A stretch of DNA of 5,071 nucleotides from a virus. Its lineage: Duplodnaviria; Heunggongvirae; Uroviricota; Caudoviricetes. Positions 496 to 5,071 of the stretch are shown here, piece by piece (the first letter of the stretch is position 1; every line of letters begins with the position of its first letter). The notes under the pieces were generated by a model that saw nothing but the letters and a program-made list of their open reading frames with translations, ran no database searches and was not told the origin of the DNA. A program made the translations under genes and the position numbers. Where the stretch lies: the IMG/VR virus record IMGVR_UViG_2778261420_000015; one strand, 5' to 3'.

Positions 496-1095
496 ATGGC
501 GCATATACAACTGGTCAAACAAACTTCTTCTGGTTTACTTCTCCCGGCGACGCCGGAGAGTTGCGATTTTCTGCATCAAATCAAAATAGGTGAGTGGATA
601 CACGCAGACTTTAAGCGTGTGCGTAACTACGCATTCCACAAGCGTTTTTTCAAACTCCTGCAACTGGGATTCGATTACTGGACTCCGGTCGGTGGGGCGA
701 TCACGCCTCGCGAACGAGAACTGCTGTCTGGTTTCGTTGATTACCTGTGCGAATCAGTTGGTCGGGAACACACGCCAGCCCTGAGTGATGCCGCAGAGCA
801 ATACCTTAACACCGTTGCGACTCGTAGAACCCGGGATACGGCGTTGCTAAAGTCGTTTGAGGCTTTCCGCGAGTGGGTAACCATTCAGGCCGGATTTTAC
901 ACCGAGCATATTTATCCGGACGGTAGCCGTGGGCGTCGGGCAAAATCCATCGCTTTTGCGAATATGGACGAAGTCGAGTTTCAGCAGGTTTATAAATCTG
1001 TACTGAATGTGCTGTGGAACTGGATTCTGTTTCGTAAATTCTCCTCTCAGGAGGAAGTTGAAAATGTGGCCGCACAACTACTGGAGTTTGCGTAA
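496..1095 (+). CDS. Phage Nin-region protein of unknown function (DUF1367-like as best recollection)
   Basis: 199-aa ORF with ordinary, non-low-complexity composition. Its TAA stop overlaps the next gene's ATG (TAATG at 1093-1097), which indicates translational coupling in an operon. Position is directly upstream of a YbcO-like gene and Q, as in lambdoid Nin regions. The family name is from memory and unverified. Confidence 0.6.
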   Translation: MAHIQLVKQTSSGLLLPATPESCDFLHQIKIGEWIHADFKRVRNYAFHKRFFKLLQLGFDYWTPVGGAITPRERELLSGFVDYLCESVGREHTPALSDAAEQYLNTVATRRTRDTALLKSFEAFREWVTIQAGFYTEHIYPDGSRGRRAKSIAFANMDEVEFQQVYKSVLNVLWNWILFRKFSSQEEVENVAAQLLEFA

Positions 1096-1385
1096 TGGTG
1101 AATTTACGTAAAGCGGCTAAAGGCCAGATGTGCCAGATCAGAATCCCTGGCTACTGCAATCACAATCCCGAAACCTCTGTGCTGGCGCATTACAGGCTGG
1201 CGGGGACGTGCGGAACAGCGACAAAACCACACGATATGCAGGCGGCGATAGCCTGTAGCTCATGCCACGATCTAATCGACGGGCGGGTAAAAACCAGCGA
1301 TTACACCAAAGAAGAATTGCGCCTGATGCATGCTGAAGGGGTTTTTCGCACACAAGAAATCTGGAGAAAGAAAGGTCATTTATGA
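1095..1385 (+). CDS. YbcO-like small Cys-rich (probable zinc-binding) phage protein, DUF1364 family, putative nuclease
   Basis: 96-aa ORF. N-terminal MVNLRKAAKGQMCQIRIPGYCNHNPETSVLAH and later CSSCHDLIDGR supply four cysteines in a C-x8-C ... C-x2-C layout typical of a zinc ribbon. This closely resembles my recollection of DLP12 YbcO. The start overlaps the upstream stop, and the TGA stop overlaps the next ATG (ATGA at 1382-1385). Confidence 0.65.
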   Translation: MVNLRKAAKGQMCQIRIPGYCNHNPETSVLAHYRLAGTCGTATKPHDMQAAIACSSCHDLIDGRVKTSDYTKEELRLMHAEGVFRTQEIWRKKGHL

Positions 1386-1924
1386 TTTACCCAACGAATA
1401 CAGGAAAAAGCGGAGAACACCTTCGCCTCACCACGCTGGAAAGTGTCTGGATTCAGGGAAAACTACGTATGTGGGGGCGCTGGTCGTATATTGGCGGTGG
1501 CAGGTCAGGGAATATGTTCAATCAGTTGTTGGCATCCAAAAAACTGACGAAAACAGCCATTAATGAAGCCCTGCGTAGAATGAAAAAAGCGGGAATAGAG
1601 AAAGCTGAGCTGGAAGCGTTTTTGCGAGAGATGATCAACGGCAAGCAAAAGAGCTGGCTGGCGCATTGTACTGATGCAGAGGCGTTATGTATTGATCGAG
1701 TCATAAGTGAGGTGCTGGCAGAGCATCCAGGATTGATTTGCATTCTCCGGCAACGCTATGAAGGGCGGGGGATGACTAAGCGCAAAATGGCTGAATTGCT
1801 AAATGATGGACACCCAGAGTGGTGTTTTAGCACATGCGAAAAACGGATTGCTAATTGGTTAGCTGTTGCTGAGTATGCCCTATATATTCCCATGCGTGAA
1901 TCATTTGCTGAGAAAATGGCTTGA
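1382..1924 (+). CDS. Late-gene antitermination protein Q-like
   Basis: 180-aa ORF, last gene of the coupled triad. It is followed within ~85 bp by a strong intrinsic terminator and then by accessory genes and the lysis cassette, which is the canonical Q-pR'-tR'-lysis layout. Cys/His motifs (HCTDAEALC..., EWCFSTCEK) are consistent with the zinc-binding Q families of phage 21/82-type elements. The assignment rests on context and motifs rather than a search. Confidence 0.6.
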   Translation: MIYPTNTGKSGEHLRLTTLESVWIQGKLRMWGRWSYIGGGRSGNMFNQLLASKKLTKTAINEALRRMKKAGIEKAELEAFLREMINGKQKSWLAHCTDAEALCIDRVISEVLAEHPGLICILRQRYEGRGMTKRKMAELLNDGHPEWCFSTCEKRIANWLAVAEYALYIPMRESFAEKMA

Positions 1925-2031: not shown

Positions 2032-2351
2032 ACGTCAGGAAAGCAGGGGAGAATGCTGCTAGTTGGGCAACTGGTCTTTCTGCTCCAAATTATAACAGAG
2101 ACCAGTTATAGTTTCGGTGCTGTGTTTTTTTTACAATATTGTGATAACACATTGCTGGCGGGAGTTTTGATATTTCTTGGCAGGGGCTGATGATGCGTTA
2201 TCCTGATGTCGTCAACTCATATAAAATGAGATGAGAGATCATTGCAGGGTGGTTTGTAATTCGCTGTTTAGCGGGACAATATGTTGTCTGATACAAGACA
2301 CCCGACGCCTCAGATTACTATAATAAAGACGAAGCATCCTTTGTATTGACC

Positions 2352-2378
2352 AACCGCCTGTTTAGGCGGTTCTTTTTG
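2352..2378 (+). terminator. Rho-independent terminator
   Basis: AACCGCCT-GTTT-AGGCGGTT (perfect 8-bp stem, 2352-2359 / 2364-2371) followed by CTTTTTG. Confidence 0.55.
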
Positions 2379-2908
2379 GACTGGTTTATTGTATGCCAAA
2401 TGATTATTAAAAAGGTTGTGTTAATAACAAAATCCGAAATAATATGCCTGCATATTTTTATCTTGCTTATATTCTGCATATTGTGCATAGCAGGCTCATC
2501 CCTGCAATCAAAACTGTATGATGAGTATTTTTTTTTTCCTTTTTTCCAGTCATCTGATGATGACCTGCTTCTTTTTAATCCGGATCGACATCAGTTTTTT
2601 AAGATAATTCCTGCGAGTTATATGCATAAATACCACAAACTCCGCATTTTATGTGGTTGGGAGTTGCCGGGCGCGCAGTGAGTTTGCTAAGAAAACTCCT
2701 GCATGGTGAATCCCCCTGTGCGGTGGGGTGATACCATTAACCTTTTCTGTCGCCGACAGGTATCACGAACATTTTGTTCACCGGGAGGCACCCGGCACCA
2801 TGCACTTCAATAGATTCTCTCCACATTATGGATATTCTTTCAGAATATCCCACGCAGACTTTGTGTAAATGTTAACAAATGTGCGTTTTATTTGATCTGA
2901 TTCGCTGT

Positions 2909-2938
2909 TTGAGCGTCCAAAACAACGGTATATATAAT
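2909..2938 (+). promoter_or_regulatory. Candidate sigma-70 promoter for the first TolA-like lipoprotein gene
   Basis: TTGAGC (2909-2914), 18-bp spacer, TATAAT (2933-2938). It lies ~30 bp upstream of the 2968 start codon, which has a GAGGA Shine-Dalgarno at 2960-2964. Confidence 0.4.
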
Positions 2939-2967: not shown

Positions 2968-3396
2968 ATGGGTTTTCGTAGCGCATCAATTCTTACGTTG
3001 ATTATTAGTGGGATTATTATCGGGTGCACTGATGCTGTATCGACAAATTATCATGACCGTACATCATATTACTCCGATAAAGCAATAGAGACACAGTATG
3101 TGAGTTCATCTGAACGTACTTCTGATGTTAGTGAGGATATCCGTCTGTATGCCCATCAAATCAAGAGCGCCATCGAAAAACAGTTCGGGGATGCGAGTAA
3201 GTATTCAGGAAAAGAGTGTACACTGAGAATGCATATGGCCCCGAATGGCCTTCTACTGGAGGTTAAAAGAGAAAGTGGAGACCTCGATTTATGTCGTGAA
3301 GCGATGAATGCGATAAAGAATGCTGATATACCTGCCCCCCCTTCGCCGGAAGTATATAAAGTATTTCAAAATGGGGTGCTGGATTTTAAACCCTGA
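2968..3396 (+). CDS. Prophage lipoprotein with TolA C-terminal domain III-like fold
   Basis: 142 aa. The N-terminus MGFRSASILTLIISGIIIG-C is a signal peptide with lipobox IIGC; residues after the Cys are T, D. The C-terminal ~85 aa (LYAHQIKSAIEKQFGDASKYSGKECTLRMHMAPNGLLLEVKRESGDLDLCREAMNAIKNADIPAPPSPEVYKVFQNGVLDFKP) aligns by eye almost colinearly with E. coli TolA domain III as I recall it (...YAGQIKSAIESKFYDASSYAGKTCTLRIKLAPDGMLLDIK...ALCQAA...KIPKPPSQAVYEVFKNAPLDFKP), including both cysteines and the terminal LDFKP. Good RBS and own promoter. Confidence 0.8.
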   Translation: MGFRSASILTLIISGIIIGCTDAVSTNYHDRTSYYSDKAIETQYVSSSERTSDVSEDIRLYAHQIKSAIEKQFGDASKYSGKECTLRMHMAPNGLLLEVKRESGDLDLCREAMNAIKNADIPAPPSPEVYKVFQNGVLDFKP

Positions 3397-3546
3397 TATT
3401 TATTGTTTTGTAATAAACGGTTTCGGCTTAGGTTTGTTCTGACACAGCTACGGCACTGAGCTAAATTTAGCGGATAGTCAGCTCTGAGCCAGTGGCGGAC
3501 GTAACAACTACTATTGCTGAGATTTTAATGGATTGAGGAGCAAGAA

Positions 3547-3942
3547 GTGGGATTAAAGAAAATCGTTATGTTGACTTTTTGGGTCGGTTTTGTTGCGGGA
3601 TGCACACCTTTACACCCTTCAGATTGCCACAAAACTACTGCTACAGGTAGTTGCAGTTCAGGACGCTGGGATGATCAGGATGAATGGGGGGCGCAAGCGC
3701 GGGGAATCAGAGCTGCAATTAATGCCAAACTTGATGAGCCGCATAACTGGAAAGGGAAAAAATGCAGGTTGCATATGGAATTCTCTCAGGATGGCACGGC
3801 GTTAAAAATATCTACCAGTAACGGTGATAAAGCCTATTGCGAAGCGATAAAGTCCGCAGCTCATAAAGCCAAATTTCCGGCCTTCAACAATCCGGAAGTC
3901 TACAGAGATTTTCAGAAATCTGGCTTTGACATGCGAGGTTAG
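3547..3942 (+). CDS. Second, divergent TolA domain III-like lipoprotein (paralog of 2968-3396)
   Basis: 131 aa. GTG start at 3547, preceded by GAGGAG (3535-3540). Signal peptide MGLKKIVMLTFWVGFVAG-C with lipobox VAGC. The C-terminal region IRAAINAKLDEPHNWKGKKCRLHMEFSQDGTALKISTSNGDKAYCEAIKSAAHKAKFPAFNNPEVYRDFQKSG keeps the two cysteines and the PEVY..FQ core of the TolA-III-like domain, but the rest is diverged and the terminal LDFKP is replaced. Confidence 0.75.
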   Translation: MGLKKIVMLTFWVGFVAGCTPLHPSDCHKTTATGSCSSGRWDDQDEWGAQARGIRAAINAKLDEPHNWKGKKCRLHMEFSQDGTALKISTSNGDKAYCEAIKSAAHKAKFPAFNNPEVYRDFQKSGFDMRG

Positions 3943-4067: not shown

Positions 4068-4092
4068 AGCTCGCTACGGCGAGCTTTTTATA
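4068..4092 (+). terminator. Rho-independent terminator closing the accessory island
   Basis: AGCTCGC-TACG-GCGAGCT (7-bp stem) followed by TTTTTAT, about 100 bp upstream of the holin start. Confidence 0.5.
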
Positions 4093-4193
4093 TTGCATCG
4101 TCTCCAGCATATATATCAATTAAGGCTCTGATTGATGTGTCTGAAAGCCTACACATAATAACTATGCCATCCGTTCCGTGCGGAGGTGAGGCT

Positions 4194-4409
4194 ATGAAAT
4201 CCATGGACAAAATTTCAACAGGCATTGCCTACGGCACCTCCGCAGGCAGTGCTGGCTACTGGTTTTTACAGTTGCTCGATAGAGTAACTCCGTCACAGTG
4301 GGCTGCAATCGGTGTGCTGGGTAGTCTGGTATTTGGCCTGCTGACGTACCTGACAAACCTTTATTTCAAGATTAAAGAAGATAAGCGCAAGGCTGCGAGA
4401 GGTGAATAA
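4194..4409 (+). CDS. S: Class II pinholin, phage 21 S-type, dual-start (antiholin from 4194, holin from 4203)
   Basis: [28 protein letters not shown]...[36 protein letters not shown] matches the S21 pinholin nearly residue for residue from memory. The two starts are M-K-S-M (ATG at 4194 and 4203); the extra Lys is the known antiholin determinant. GGAGG at 4182-4186. TMD1 is Gly/Ala/Ser-rich (SAR-like); TMD2 carries a glycine-zipper. The track's 4137 start is an upstream in-frame extension lacking an RBS. Confidence 0.9.
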
Positions 4410-4906
4410 TGCCTCCATCATTACGAAAAGTCGTTGCTGCTGCTATTGGTGGCGGAGCAATTGCTATAGCATCAGTGTTAATCACTGGCCCAAGTGGTAA
4501 CGATGGTCTGGAAGGTGTCAGCTACATACCATACAAAGATATTGTTGGTGTATGGACTGTATGTCACGGGCATACAGGAAAAGACATCATGCTCGGTAAA
4601 ACGTATACCAAAGCAGAATGCAAAACACTCTTGAATAAAGACCTTGCCACGGTCGCCAGACAAATTAACCCGTACATCAAAGTCGATATACCGGAAACAA
4701 CGCGCGGCGCTCTTTACTCATTCGTTTACAACGTGGGTGCTGGCAATTTCAGAACATCGACGCTTCTTCGCAAAATAAACCAGGGCGATATCAAAGGCGC
4801 ATGTGATCAGCTACGTCGCTGGACATATGCTGGCGGTAAGCAATGGAAAGGTCTCATGACTCGTCGTGAGATTGAGCGTGAAATCTGTTTGTGGGGTCAG
4901 CAATGA
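4409..4906 (+). CDS. R: SAR endolysin (phage 21 R-type lysozyme, T4-lysozyme-like catalytic domain with N-terminal signal-anchor-release segment)
   Basis: 165 aa. The N-terminal [27 protein letters not shown] is a weakly hydrophobic Gly/Ala-rich SAR domain. It is followed by an E...D...T arrangement ([22 protein letters not shown]) matching the catalytic triad layout of R21-type lysozymes. The ATG overlaps the holin stop (TAATG at 4407-4411). Near-identical to my recollection of R21 / DLP12 RrrD. Confidence 0.9.
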
Positions 4907-5010
4907 ACAGAGTAACCGCGATTATCTCCGCTCTGGTTATCTGCATCGTCGTCTGCCTGTCATGGGGTGTTAATCATTACCGTGATAACGCCATTAGACT
5001 GGCCCCCTGA
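4903..5010 (+). pseudogene. Rz: Rz (i-spanin) 5' fragment, truncated by IS2 insertion
   Basis: The start overlaps the endolysin stop (ATGA at 4903-4906). [31 protein letters not shown] is the N-terminal TM anchor of phage-21-type Rz. After codon ~31 the frame runs into IS2 sequence (RLAP-stop at 5008-5010). The embedded Rz1 frame would lie beyond the insertion and is not in the window. Confidence 0.8.
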
Positions 5011-5071
5011 ATCTCCAGACAACCAATATCACTTAAATAAGTGATAGTCTTAATACTAGTTTTTAGACTAG
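4995..5071 (+). mobile_element. IS2 (IS3 family) left terminal region, partial; element continues past the window end
   Basis: TAGACTGGCCCCCTGAATCTCCAGACAACCAATATCACTTAAATAAGTGATAGTCTTAATACTAGTTTTTAGACTAG matches the IS2 left end as I recall it (the bases that follow in IS2 would be TCATTGGAGAACAGATG, the insC start). The junction is ambiguous by 1-2 nt, at about 4995-4997. Confidence 0.75.

Follow-up and report, generated by a model that had tools for sequence, protein, structure and literature searches.

The stretch of DNA analyzed here, the 5,071-nucleotide (nt) window of the IMG/VR virus record IMGVR_UViG_2778261420_000015 (Caudoviricetes), comes from a lambdoid prophage, of which it represents the late region. 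Between a Q-like gene and the lysis genes it carries two neighboring genes, here called P1 and P2, each of which encodes a small lipoprotein ending in TolA's C-terminal domain (domain III, TolA-III). An original prediction, made from the DNA letters, had already taken both genes for TolA-III lipoproteins with differing surfaces; our analysis agrees, and places the differences at mapped ligand sites. The P2 protein as such is already present in databases, and what may be new is its possible function as a lipid-anchored copy of TolA-III. The features of the window are collected in Table 1.

P2, a conserved lipoprotein with a TolA-III domain

The open reading frame (ORF) of P2 is real and exactly as it had been predicted: it starts with a GTG codon, 6 nt after the Shine-Dalgarno sequence GAGGAG, and encodes a precursor of 131 amino acids. 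The signal peptide consists of an n-region with two lysines and a hydrophobic core and ends in the lipobox V-A-G-C19, which agrees with the pattern [LVI][ASTVI][GAS]C, and the mature protein begins with Cys19. This lipobox is kept in 120 P2 homologues; the remaining signal peptide is variable. According to the +2 rule, which is the established basis for lipoprotein sorting, Asp at position +2 causes retention in the inner membrane. In P2 this residue is Thr, and because neither P2 nor P1 carries Asp at +2, both proteins are predicted to be sorted to the outer membrane, where they should face the periplasm. In RefSeq, the Prokaryotic Genome Annotation Pipeline (PGAP) starts P2 at an internal ATG, giving a protein of 124 amino acids that has lost the basic n-region of the signal peptide; in other records P2 homologues carry N-terminal extensions of 12-30 amino acids, and start codons are inconsistently called.

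The original prediction had been accompanied by the doubt that P2 might not be expressed. The pO157 gene product L7092, which is 88% identical to P2, is among the proteins of E. coli O157:H7 that shotgun proteomics has revealed, and was grouped there with lipoproteins (PMC3210124). The proteomics table gives it 143 amino acids, a lipobox VAGC31A and the location “IM or OM” (inner or outer membrane), and this lipobox agrees with the translation of the pO157 gene. L7092 shares the lipobox VAGC and a cysteine-containing module (see below) with P2, and differs from it in being plasmid-borne, in its longer annotated N-terminus and in having no P1 partner or lysis genes nearby. Pairwise ratios of nonsynonymous to synonymous substitution rates (dN/dS) between the P2 copies of the prophage, plasmid, Enterobacter and Serratia amount to 0.04-0.12, which corresponds to purifying selection. 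P2 is a genuine, conserved small lipoprotein, of which a close homologue is expressed as protein.

The Pfam family of the TolA C-terminal domain, PF06519, matches P2 with 54.6 bits (cut-off 25, E=1.3e-14) over positions 10-92 of the 96 in the profile, and a comparison with the sequences in the PDB retrieves E. coli TolA chains at E=5e-9. In an AlphaFold2 model built on 23 homologues, residues 39-131 have predicted local distance difference test (pLDDT) values of 85-97. The best PDB matches of the model (3QDP, 2X9A, 3QDR and 1TOL) are all TolA-III, with root mean square deviations (r.m.s.d.) of 1.1-1.2 Å. The r.m.s.d. to E. coli TolA-III is 1.1 Å over 84-86 columns, and target-normalized TM-scores reach 0.85-0.92 for the isolated-domain chains 3QDP, 2X9A_B and 3QDR_A. 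Residues 39-131 of P2 are TolA domain III, a match far beyond chance, and family, PDB and fold comparisons all agree with the TolA-III core that had been recognized originally (CRLHM, a second cysteine and PEVY.DFQ). The two cysteines of this core, Cys73 and Cys98, align with Cys363 and Cys388 of TolA and are invariant in 23 aligned homologues. The identity of the domain to TolA 340-419 is 34% (27 of 80 residues), and its dN/dS is 0.06-0.17.

The terminal LDFKP of TolA had been thought to be lacking in P2. In the alignment, however, FDMRG stands in its place without a gap (L417F, D418D, F419M, K420R, P421G), and the AlphaFold2 model predicts residues 124-130, which include this segment, as a strand.

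Although it belongs to the TolA C-terminal domain family, P2 is not a TolA. It stays below the cut-offs of the full-length TolA equivalog models TIGR02794 and NF007065 (47.2 bits vs. 59.45 and 53.7 vs. 213, respectively), which align to it with their last ~80 profile positions only. The inner-membrane anchor helix and the long helical domain II are missing, and its neighbors are phage Q-like and lysis genes rather than tolQRA-tolB-pal. In general, P2 and E. coli TolA-III (residues ~333-421) share the α/β fold and the cysteine pair, and P2 has, by alignment and model, a β3-like edge with conservative changes, whereas TolA sits in the inner membrane on the TolQR motor and P2, encoded outside the tol-pal operon, is predicted to be lipid-anchored to the outer membrane and has an extra module with Cys27 and Cys36. 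Both P1 and P2 match PHROG 5772, a family of unknown function, and the Pfam and PHROG scans of the two proteins returned TolA, TonB_2, PHROG 5772 and PHROG 5374 only. The viral structure library BFVD gave no TolA-III-like match at E<=0.001. The sequence GSCSSGRWDDQDEWG bears a likeness to the TolB-binding epitope of colicin E9, GASDGSGWSSENNPWG, but a mimicry of the TolB box was set aside, save as a possible lead: the Trp residues are spaced differently by one position, and in the alignment DDQDEWG falls at the beginning of TolA helix α1.

The segment between the lipid anchor and the domain, C19 to W41, had been described as a linker with three extra cysteines. The first cysteine counted there is the lipobox Cys19, so that just two are extra, Cys27 (codon 3625-3627) and Cys36 (codon 3652-3654). 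Nor is the segment a mere linker. Over 83 distinct mature P2 homologue sequences its mean column entropy is 0.23 bits, compared to 0.37 bits for the TolA domain, while the signal peptide has 1.16 bits; 48% of its columns are invariant vs. 19% in the domain. Its dN/dS is 0.01-0.08, with synonymous sites saturated. The spacing lipobox-C, x7-9, C, x7-8, C persists in relatives at 32-59% identity (P0122, P0128, P0133, P0142, P0163 and P0209). By these sequence measures the module is the best-conserved part of P2, more so than the TolA domain. A single small disulfide loop between Cys27 and Cys36, close beneath the lipid anchor, is probable. The AlphaFold2 model has pLDDT values below 50 for residues 1-38, the module included, and the homologues available are too alike for a covariation analysis of the module. 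A search with the first 52 residues returned truncated P2 fragments only and no fusion of the module to another domain.

Table 1. Genes, protein segments and candidate transcription signals of the 5,071-nt window
Feature	Position	Strand	Remarks
DUF1367 gene	496-1095		
YbcO-type gene	1095-1385		
Q-like gene	1382-1924		Pfam matches DUF1133 and Phage_antitermQ
AT-rich stretch	between Q-like gene and P1		
Promoter-like AAGACA-18-TATAAT, then hairpin AACCGCC-TGTT-TAGGCGGTT and T-run	2295-2371	+	Downstream of Q-like gene; hairpin follows within ~30 nt
Sigma-70-like promoter match TTGAGC-18-TATAAT	2909-2938	+	10 of 12 consensus matches; ~30 nt upstream of P1
P1 gene	2968-3396	+	142-residue TolA-III lipoprotein
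P1-P2 spacer	3397-3546	+	150 nt; remnants of P2 upstream block; GAGGAG at 3535-3540
P2 gene	3547-3942	+	131-residue TolA-III lipoprotein precursor
P2 signal peptide and lipobox	3547-3603	+	MGLKKIVMLTFWVGFVAG-C19
P2 Cys module	3601-3669	+	C19-TPLHPSD-C27-HKTTATGS-C36-SSGRW41
P2 TolA-III domain	3670-3939	+	Residues 42-131; Cys73 codon 3763-3765, Cys98 codon 3838-3840; C-terminal strand FDMRG
Terminator-like hairpin AGCTCGC-TACG-GCGAGCT, then TTTTATATT	4068-4085 (4068-4095 with the T-run)	+	7-bp stem, 5 GC pairs; consensus match only
S21-type holin gene	4137/4194-4409	+	PF04971; essD in identical annotated locus
Lysozyme gene	4409-4906	+	PF00959; rrrD in identical annotated locus
Rz-type gene, start only	from 4903		

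Relation of P1 to P2 and spread of the two genes

The lipobox of P1, I-I-G-C20 (Cys codon 3025-3027), is followed by a tether of 34 amino acids, rich in Ser, Thr and Tyr and free of cysteines, and by the TolA-III domain of residues 55-142 (3130-3393), which ends in LDFKP. PF06519 matches P1 with 82.6 bits, and 52 of 88 residues (59%) are identical to E. coli TolA 334-421, without a gap through the last residue. The identity between the domains of P1 and P2 is 31%, P2 being about equally far from P1 and from TolA. Both are TolA-III lipoproteins of ~130-140 amino acids, but P1 has a long cysteine-free tether where P2 has the Cys module. Alleles of P1 occur in E. coli and Shigella only and are 65-100% identical, with the TolA domain almost unchanged. 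RefSeq/PGAP annotates P1 (8237-8497 of locus L001, corresponding to ~3136-3396 of the window) as a tolA pseudogene, “incomplete; missing N-terminus”, because the full-length TolA equivalog model matches only its C-terminus. We reject the pseudogene assignment in view of the intact ORF, the proper lipoprotein signal peptide and the alleles with their near-identical domain. Two annotation habits, the pseudogene flag on P1 and the inconsistent start codons of P2, hide the family.

Of the 5426 complete E. coli genomes, 775 (~14%) have P1 and P2 arranged as in the window, at an identity of at least 99%. The P1 allele at this level of identity occupies 782 loci, of which 775 carry both genes. Beyond E. 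coli, relatives that are 78-89% identical to P2 are present in Citrobacter, Enterobacter, Serratia, Klebsiella and Raoultella, and lone chromosomal P2 genes are seen in Enterobacter, Serratia, Citrobacter and K. oxytoca, in a different non-prophage neighborhood in each genus. Copies of P2 that are 88% identical in protein sequence are also borne by about 600 plasmids. On pO157-type plasmids the P2 homologue L7092 lies between hok and toxB, while on I-complex plasmids the copy directly follows the relaxase gene nikB and precedes trbC, trbB (DsbC-like) and trbA. As judged from these contexts, the P2 lineage moves as a single-gene cassette between plasmids, both conjugative and virulence ones, chromosomes and this prophage.

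The chromosomal P2 orthologues of Serratia (~5780-6000 of locus L010) and of Citrobacter and K. oxytoca (~4780-5000 of loci L015 and L018) have in common an upstream block of ~200 nt in otherwise unrelated neighborhoods. The block contains an inverted repeat, CTACAT...ATGTAG, and a promoter-like TTGAAA-17/18-AAGAAT. An Rfam scan of the block of one chromosomal P2 orthologue gave nothing. In Serratia the P2 orthologue adjoins genes with GmrSD_N and HEPN domains (L010, 6957-8736), which are likely a defence pair, and the whole locus lies between nrdDG and an arsenic-resistance permease gene.

An alignment of upstream regions reveals that the P1-P2 spacer of the window keeps remnants of this block, and since it is P2's own upstream block, P2 appears to have been inserted separately. 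P1 and P2 each also occur alone, P2 on plasmids and chromosomes and P1 at the position of stx, and therefore neither gene depends on the other; from sequence and distribution, the pair is assembled from two independent cassettes. An origin by tandem duplication is ruled out by the 31% identity, the separate distributions and the block remnants in the spacer. The notion that one protein could act as regulator or partner of the other, put forward with the original prediction, is disfavored, as each is present elsewhere without the other. The lone P1 allele (~80% nucleotide identity) belongs to a prophage of E. coli 2014C-3097 (L014, 4508-5375), where the order is Q, DNA methyltransferase, tRNA-Ile, tRNA-Arg, P1 allele and nanS-p-type esterase; this is the stx position of Shiga toxin (Stx) phages.

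Among 72 short TolA-III representatives, 54 have a lipobox, and a further type of TolA-III lipoprotein is found on ~300 mostly Klebsiella plasmids. Because so many representatives carry the lipobox and a separate lineage exists on Klebsiella plasmids, the predicted anchoring of a free TolA-III in the outer membrane is, at the level of sequence, a recurrent and selected design. On the IncFII plasmid NZ_CP033755.1 of Klebsiella pneumoniae (L020, 5217-6246), the TolA-III lipoprotein has the lipobox ITAC and a long tether and ends in LDFRL. Its gene lies 46 nt downstream of one for a secreted thioredoxin-fold protein with a CVYC motif, and nearby is a pair of genes for an ATP-binding protein and a UvrD helicase, which looks like Gabija-type defence.

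Ligand sites and possible functions

TolA-III is a shared gateway for group A colicins and for filamentous phages of the Ff, If1 and CTXφ types. Its β3 edge (L417-K420) docks the N1 domain of the phage gene 3 protein (g3p, pIII), colicin N (ColN) and the N-terminus of TolB by strand augmentation (PMC4339652; PMC7391070), and in this docking backbone hydrogen bonds and β-propensity outweigh side chains (PMC4339652). The colicin A site lies on the opposite edge, L375-P380, and includes K368, K379 and K396 (PMC3365938). We compared both sites by alignment. P1 has LDFK exactly at β3, the residues H, K and K at the colicin A site (K379 and K396 kept) and the strand LLEVKR; it looks like a near-faithful copy of TolA-III that keeps the β3 edge and most of the colicin A site. 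P2 has FDMR at β3, while the colicin A lysines are replaced by E, S and H and the strand reads ALKIST, compared to LLDIKP in TolA. Plausibly, P2 keeps docking of the β3 type only and adds invariant surfaces of its own. The TolB-contact residues of Walburger, Y352 and V407, were left unused, their numbering differing by one from the 421-residue numbering.

It is plausible from these residues that the partner spectra of P1 and P2 differ. To this extent the original idea of different binding partners stands, but not as a matter of diverged tandem copies. Similarly, the surface motif that was singled out does differ between the two proteins (KAKFPAF in P2, NADIPAPP in P1). The change in charge was assigned to the wrong protein, however: because host TolA has LAKIPKPP, it is P1 that departs by loss of a basic residue, and not P2.

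We tentatively favor the possibility that P2 is an outer-membrane-tethered decoy for Tol-dependent bacteriocins or for the pIII of filamentous phages. Lacking Asp at +2, P2 would be sorted to the outer membrane, on its periplasmic side, and would let its domain hang on a tether of ~20 residues, probably shortened by the Cys27-Cys36 loop; the domain of P1 would hang on 34 residues. The exposed β3 edge of P2 would then bind TolA-III-type ligands, such as bacteriocin translocation domains and pIII N1, by β-strand augmentation. In this way the ligands could be trapped as they emerge from the outer membrane and before they meet the energized, inner-membrane-anchored TolA, and the carrier cell would become tolerant. 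P1, with its colicin A site, would cover a partly different set of ligands, the two proteins working independently.

The affinity of TolA for TolB is ~40 µM and for ColN ~1 µM, i.e. ~40-fold tighter for ColN (PMC4339652), and because TolA-TolB binding is weak in comparison, a decoy at a moderate level could titrate invaders while leaving Tol-Pal intact. Carriage on mobile elements (the prophage, I-complex plasmids, pO157, and in Serratia beside GmrSD/HEPN genes) fits a protective accessory trait. Phage IF1 infects via I-type pili. One of the best structural matches of P2, 2X9A, is a g3p of this phage bound to TolA-III, which links up with the carriage of P2 by pilus-making I-complex plasmids.

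Known exclusion systems offer parallels. Periplasmic pIII-N1 sequesters TolA, resulting in colicin A resistance and a 4-log fall in phage uptake (PMC10424213). The interaction that blocks phage uptake and colicin A there, TolA-III with pIII-N1, is the same as proposed for P2, but the roles are opposite: the ligand occupies the host receptor in the one case, and a copy of the receptor would occupy the ligand in the other. Cor is an exclusion lipoprotein of phi80, N15 and mEp phages. Llp is the outer-membrane exclusion lipoprotein of T5, according to a preprint (bioRxiv 10.64898/2026.03.26.714494). As P2 might, Cor and Llp, both small lipoproteins of phages, act from the periplasmic side of the outer membrane and block the entry of competitors. 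They plug the receptor FhuA, whereas P2 would mimic a periplasmic co-receptor and bind the invader, and no sequence or family kinship of P2 with Cor or Llp appeared in the Pfam and PHROG scans. Overproduction of periplasmic TolA-III reportedly renders wild-type cells colicin-tolerant and leaky, a finding said to go back to Levengood-Freyermuth, Click and Webster (1993, J Bacteriol).

A wider and more doubtful proposal is that outer-membrane-anchored TolA-III copies make up a widespread, undescribed class of “co-receptor mimic” defence on mobile elements, comprising the prophage genes P1 and P2, L7092 of pO157, the gene that follows nikB on I-complex plasmids and the lipoprotein of the Klebsiella IncFII plasmid. 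On the inner side of the outer membrane, such proteins would catch Tol-dependent bacteriocins and the pIII of filamentous phages; pilus-making conjugative plasmids would offset the vulnerability to filamentous phages that their pili create, and the Cys loop of P2 would set the position or rigidity of the trap. If P2 does block the TolA gateway, tolerance would be conferred simply by one gene, and this would bear on bacteriocin competition and therapeutics, phage display, the ecology of filamentous phages and plasmid fitness.

Several points speak against a decoy. PADLOC-DB v2 defence models gave no family at E<=0.1 for P1 or P2, and full-text literature searches found neither binding or phenotype data nor any study on what TolA-III lipoproteins of prophages or plasmids do. 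P2 is just 34% identical to TolA-III, with all three colicin A cation-π lysines gone. Only one of 50,697 phage records, mEp460_ev081, has P1 or P2. In the lysogen, expression of P2 would hang on the promoter-like site of P1 or on late read-through, because the conserved promoter-like site of its own is degenerate here. For pO157, which makes no conjugative pilus, the anti-filamentous-phage rationale does not apply, and a decoy that also binds TolB would cost fitness. Finally, the near-invariant surface and Cys module and the ordinary chromosomal settings would fit a conserved partner, for example the N-terminus of TolB, as well or better.

Could P2 be a modulator of Tol-Pal instead? It would then bind the N-terminal strand of TolB or another host partner near Pal and tune or block the TolA-driven removal of TolB from Pal, so that outer-membrane stability or vesiculation is altered, or the outer membrane is weakened late in induction together with holin and endolysin. 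We regard this as unlikely, though well short of negligible. TolB docks on the same β3 edge, and the near-invariance of the P2 surface and Cys module across genera under strong purifying selection is as expected for a conserved host ligand; the orthologues of Enterobacter, Citrobacter and K. oxytoca are lone genes with ordinary chromosomal surroundings. P2 of the window belongs to the putative late transcription unit, where the lysis genes follow it directly; in EDL933, a prophage gene of the TolA type was reported to be 32-fold up after ciprofloxacin (PMC11125564), and a Tol-Pal review considers that modulated TolB interactions could regulate vesicle production (PMC7391070). However, lysis genes are absent from the surroundings of most copies, which are those on plasmids and in other genera, so that help in lysis cannot be the general role; a constitutive tol phenotype with sensitivity to detergent and bile would be costly for gut bacteria, and the affinity of TolA for TolB is weak. 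P2, should it act on TolB-Pal, would be the first case of a mobile element that carries an accessory modulator of outer-membrane stabilization. Still less probable, in our view, is that the TolA-like fold serves as a scaffold only and that the Cys module and the P2 surface bind something that is not a TolA ligand, for example a component of a secretion system or a pilus, or a protein of the outer membrane; the function would in that case have nothing to do with Tol-dependent import. The low identity to TolA-III, the loss of the colicin A site, the conservation of a lineage-specific Cys module and the position of the I-complex copy inside the transfer region would fit, but the fold and the β3 edge are kept, the module is not seen on any other domain, and P2 is also present without transfer genes on pO157, in chromosomes and in the prophage.

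Two further explanations concern the pair. That P1 and P2 act jointly, as diverged tandem duplicates of which one regulates or assists the other, would agree with their adjacency on the same strand, 150 nt apart, and with the 775 of 782 P1-allele loci that have both. We consider it highly improbable: the distribution, with P2 alone on ~600 plasmids and in four other genera and a P1 allele alone elsewhere, largely refutes it, P1 is far closer to TolA (59%) than to P2 (31%), and the remnants of the P2 upstream block in the spacer point to separate insertion. Smaller again, and close to nil, is the chance that the two genes of this defective prophage are in decay or reflect noise in the annotation. 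The pseudogene flag on P1 and the insertion-sequence end that cuts the Rz gene may suggest decay, but both ORFs are intact with lipoprotein signal peptides, the domains of P1 alleles are near-identical, and for P2 the low dN/dS and the detection of L7092 as a protein refute it.

Transcription signals and prophage context

The sigma-70-like site upstream of P1 is possibly the promoter of the P1-P2 cassette itself. A terminator-like hairpin lies ~125 nt after the stop codon of P2, ahead of the holin gene, and as far as consensus matches go, the promoter-like site 5' of P1 and this hairpin 3' of P2 would give the cassette a moron-like layout. In the P1-P2 spacer the site TTGAAA-17/18-AAGAAT, which is kept in Serratia and Citrobacter, is degenerate, and a promoter scan of the spacer returned only a weak match, CTGACA-17-TAAATT at 3439-3467. 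The promoter-like site downstream of the Q-like gene, together with the hairpin and T-run that follow it, looks from its position like a lambdoid late promoter with its terminator. In this case, Q-modified read-through after induction would extend through P1 and P2 into the lysis genes, and the induction of the EDL933 gene by ciprofloxacin is consistent with such late co-transcription.

A full-length Rfam match to the small RNA family STnc100 (RF02076) at 2671-2857 (+), with 86.6 bits compared to a gathering score of 47, falls into the leader of the late region, downstream of the putative late promoter and upstream of P1. An ORF of 111 amino acids at 2346-2681 (+), in a stretch of 36% GC, overlaps terminator-like hairpins at 2352-2383; scans of Pfam, NCBIfam, PHROG and PADLOC gave no match for it, and it probably does not represent a gene. 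No tRNAs were found in the window.

Other accessory genes, too, occupy the slot between Q and the holin gene. Directly 3' of the P1-P2 cassette, on the same strand, follows the lysis cassette (4137-4906). At ~4995-5071, inside the Rz-type gene, the sequence of the window diverges from an otherwise identical reference locus. The interrupting sequence is the end of a multi-copy element, which we take to be the left end of the insertion sequence IS2, and occurs at 21,591 places in E. coli genomes, with a median of 3 per genome. Because this element end cuts the Rz-type gene, the spanin gene of this prophage copy is interrupted, and the prophage is defective.

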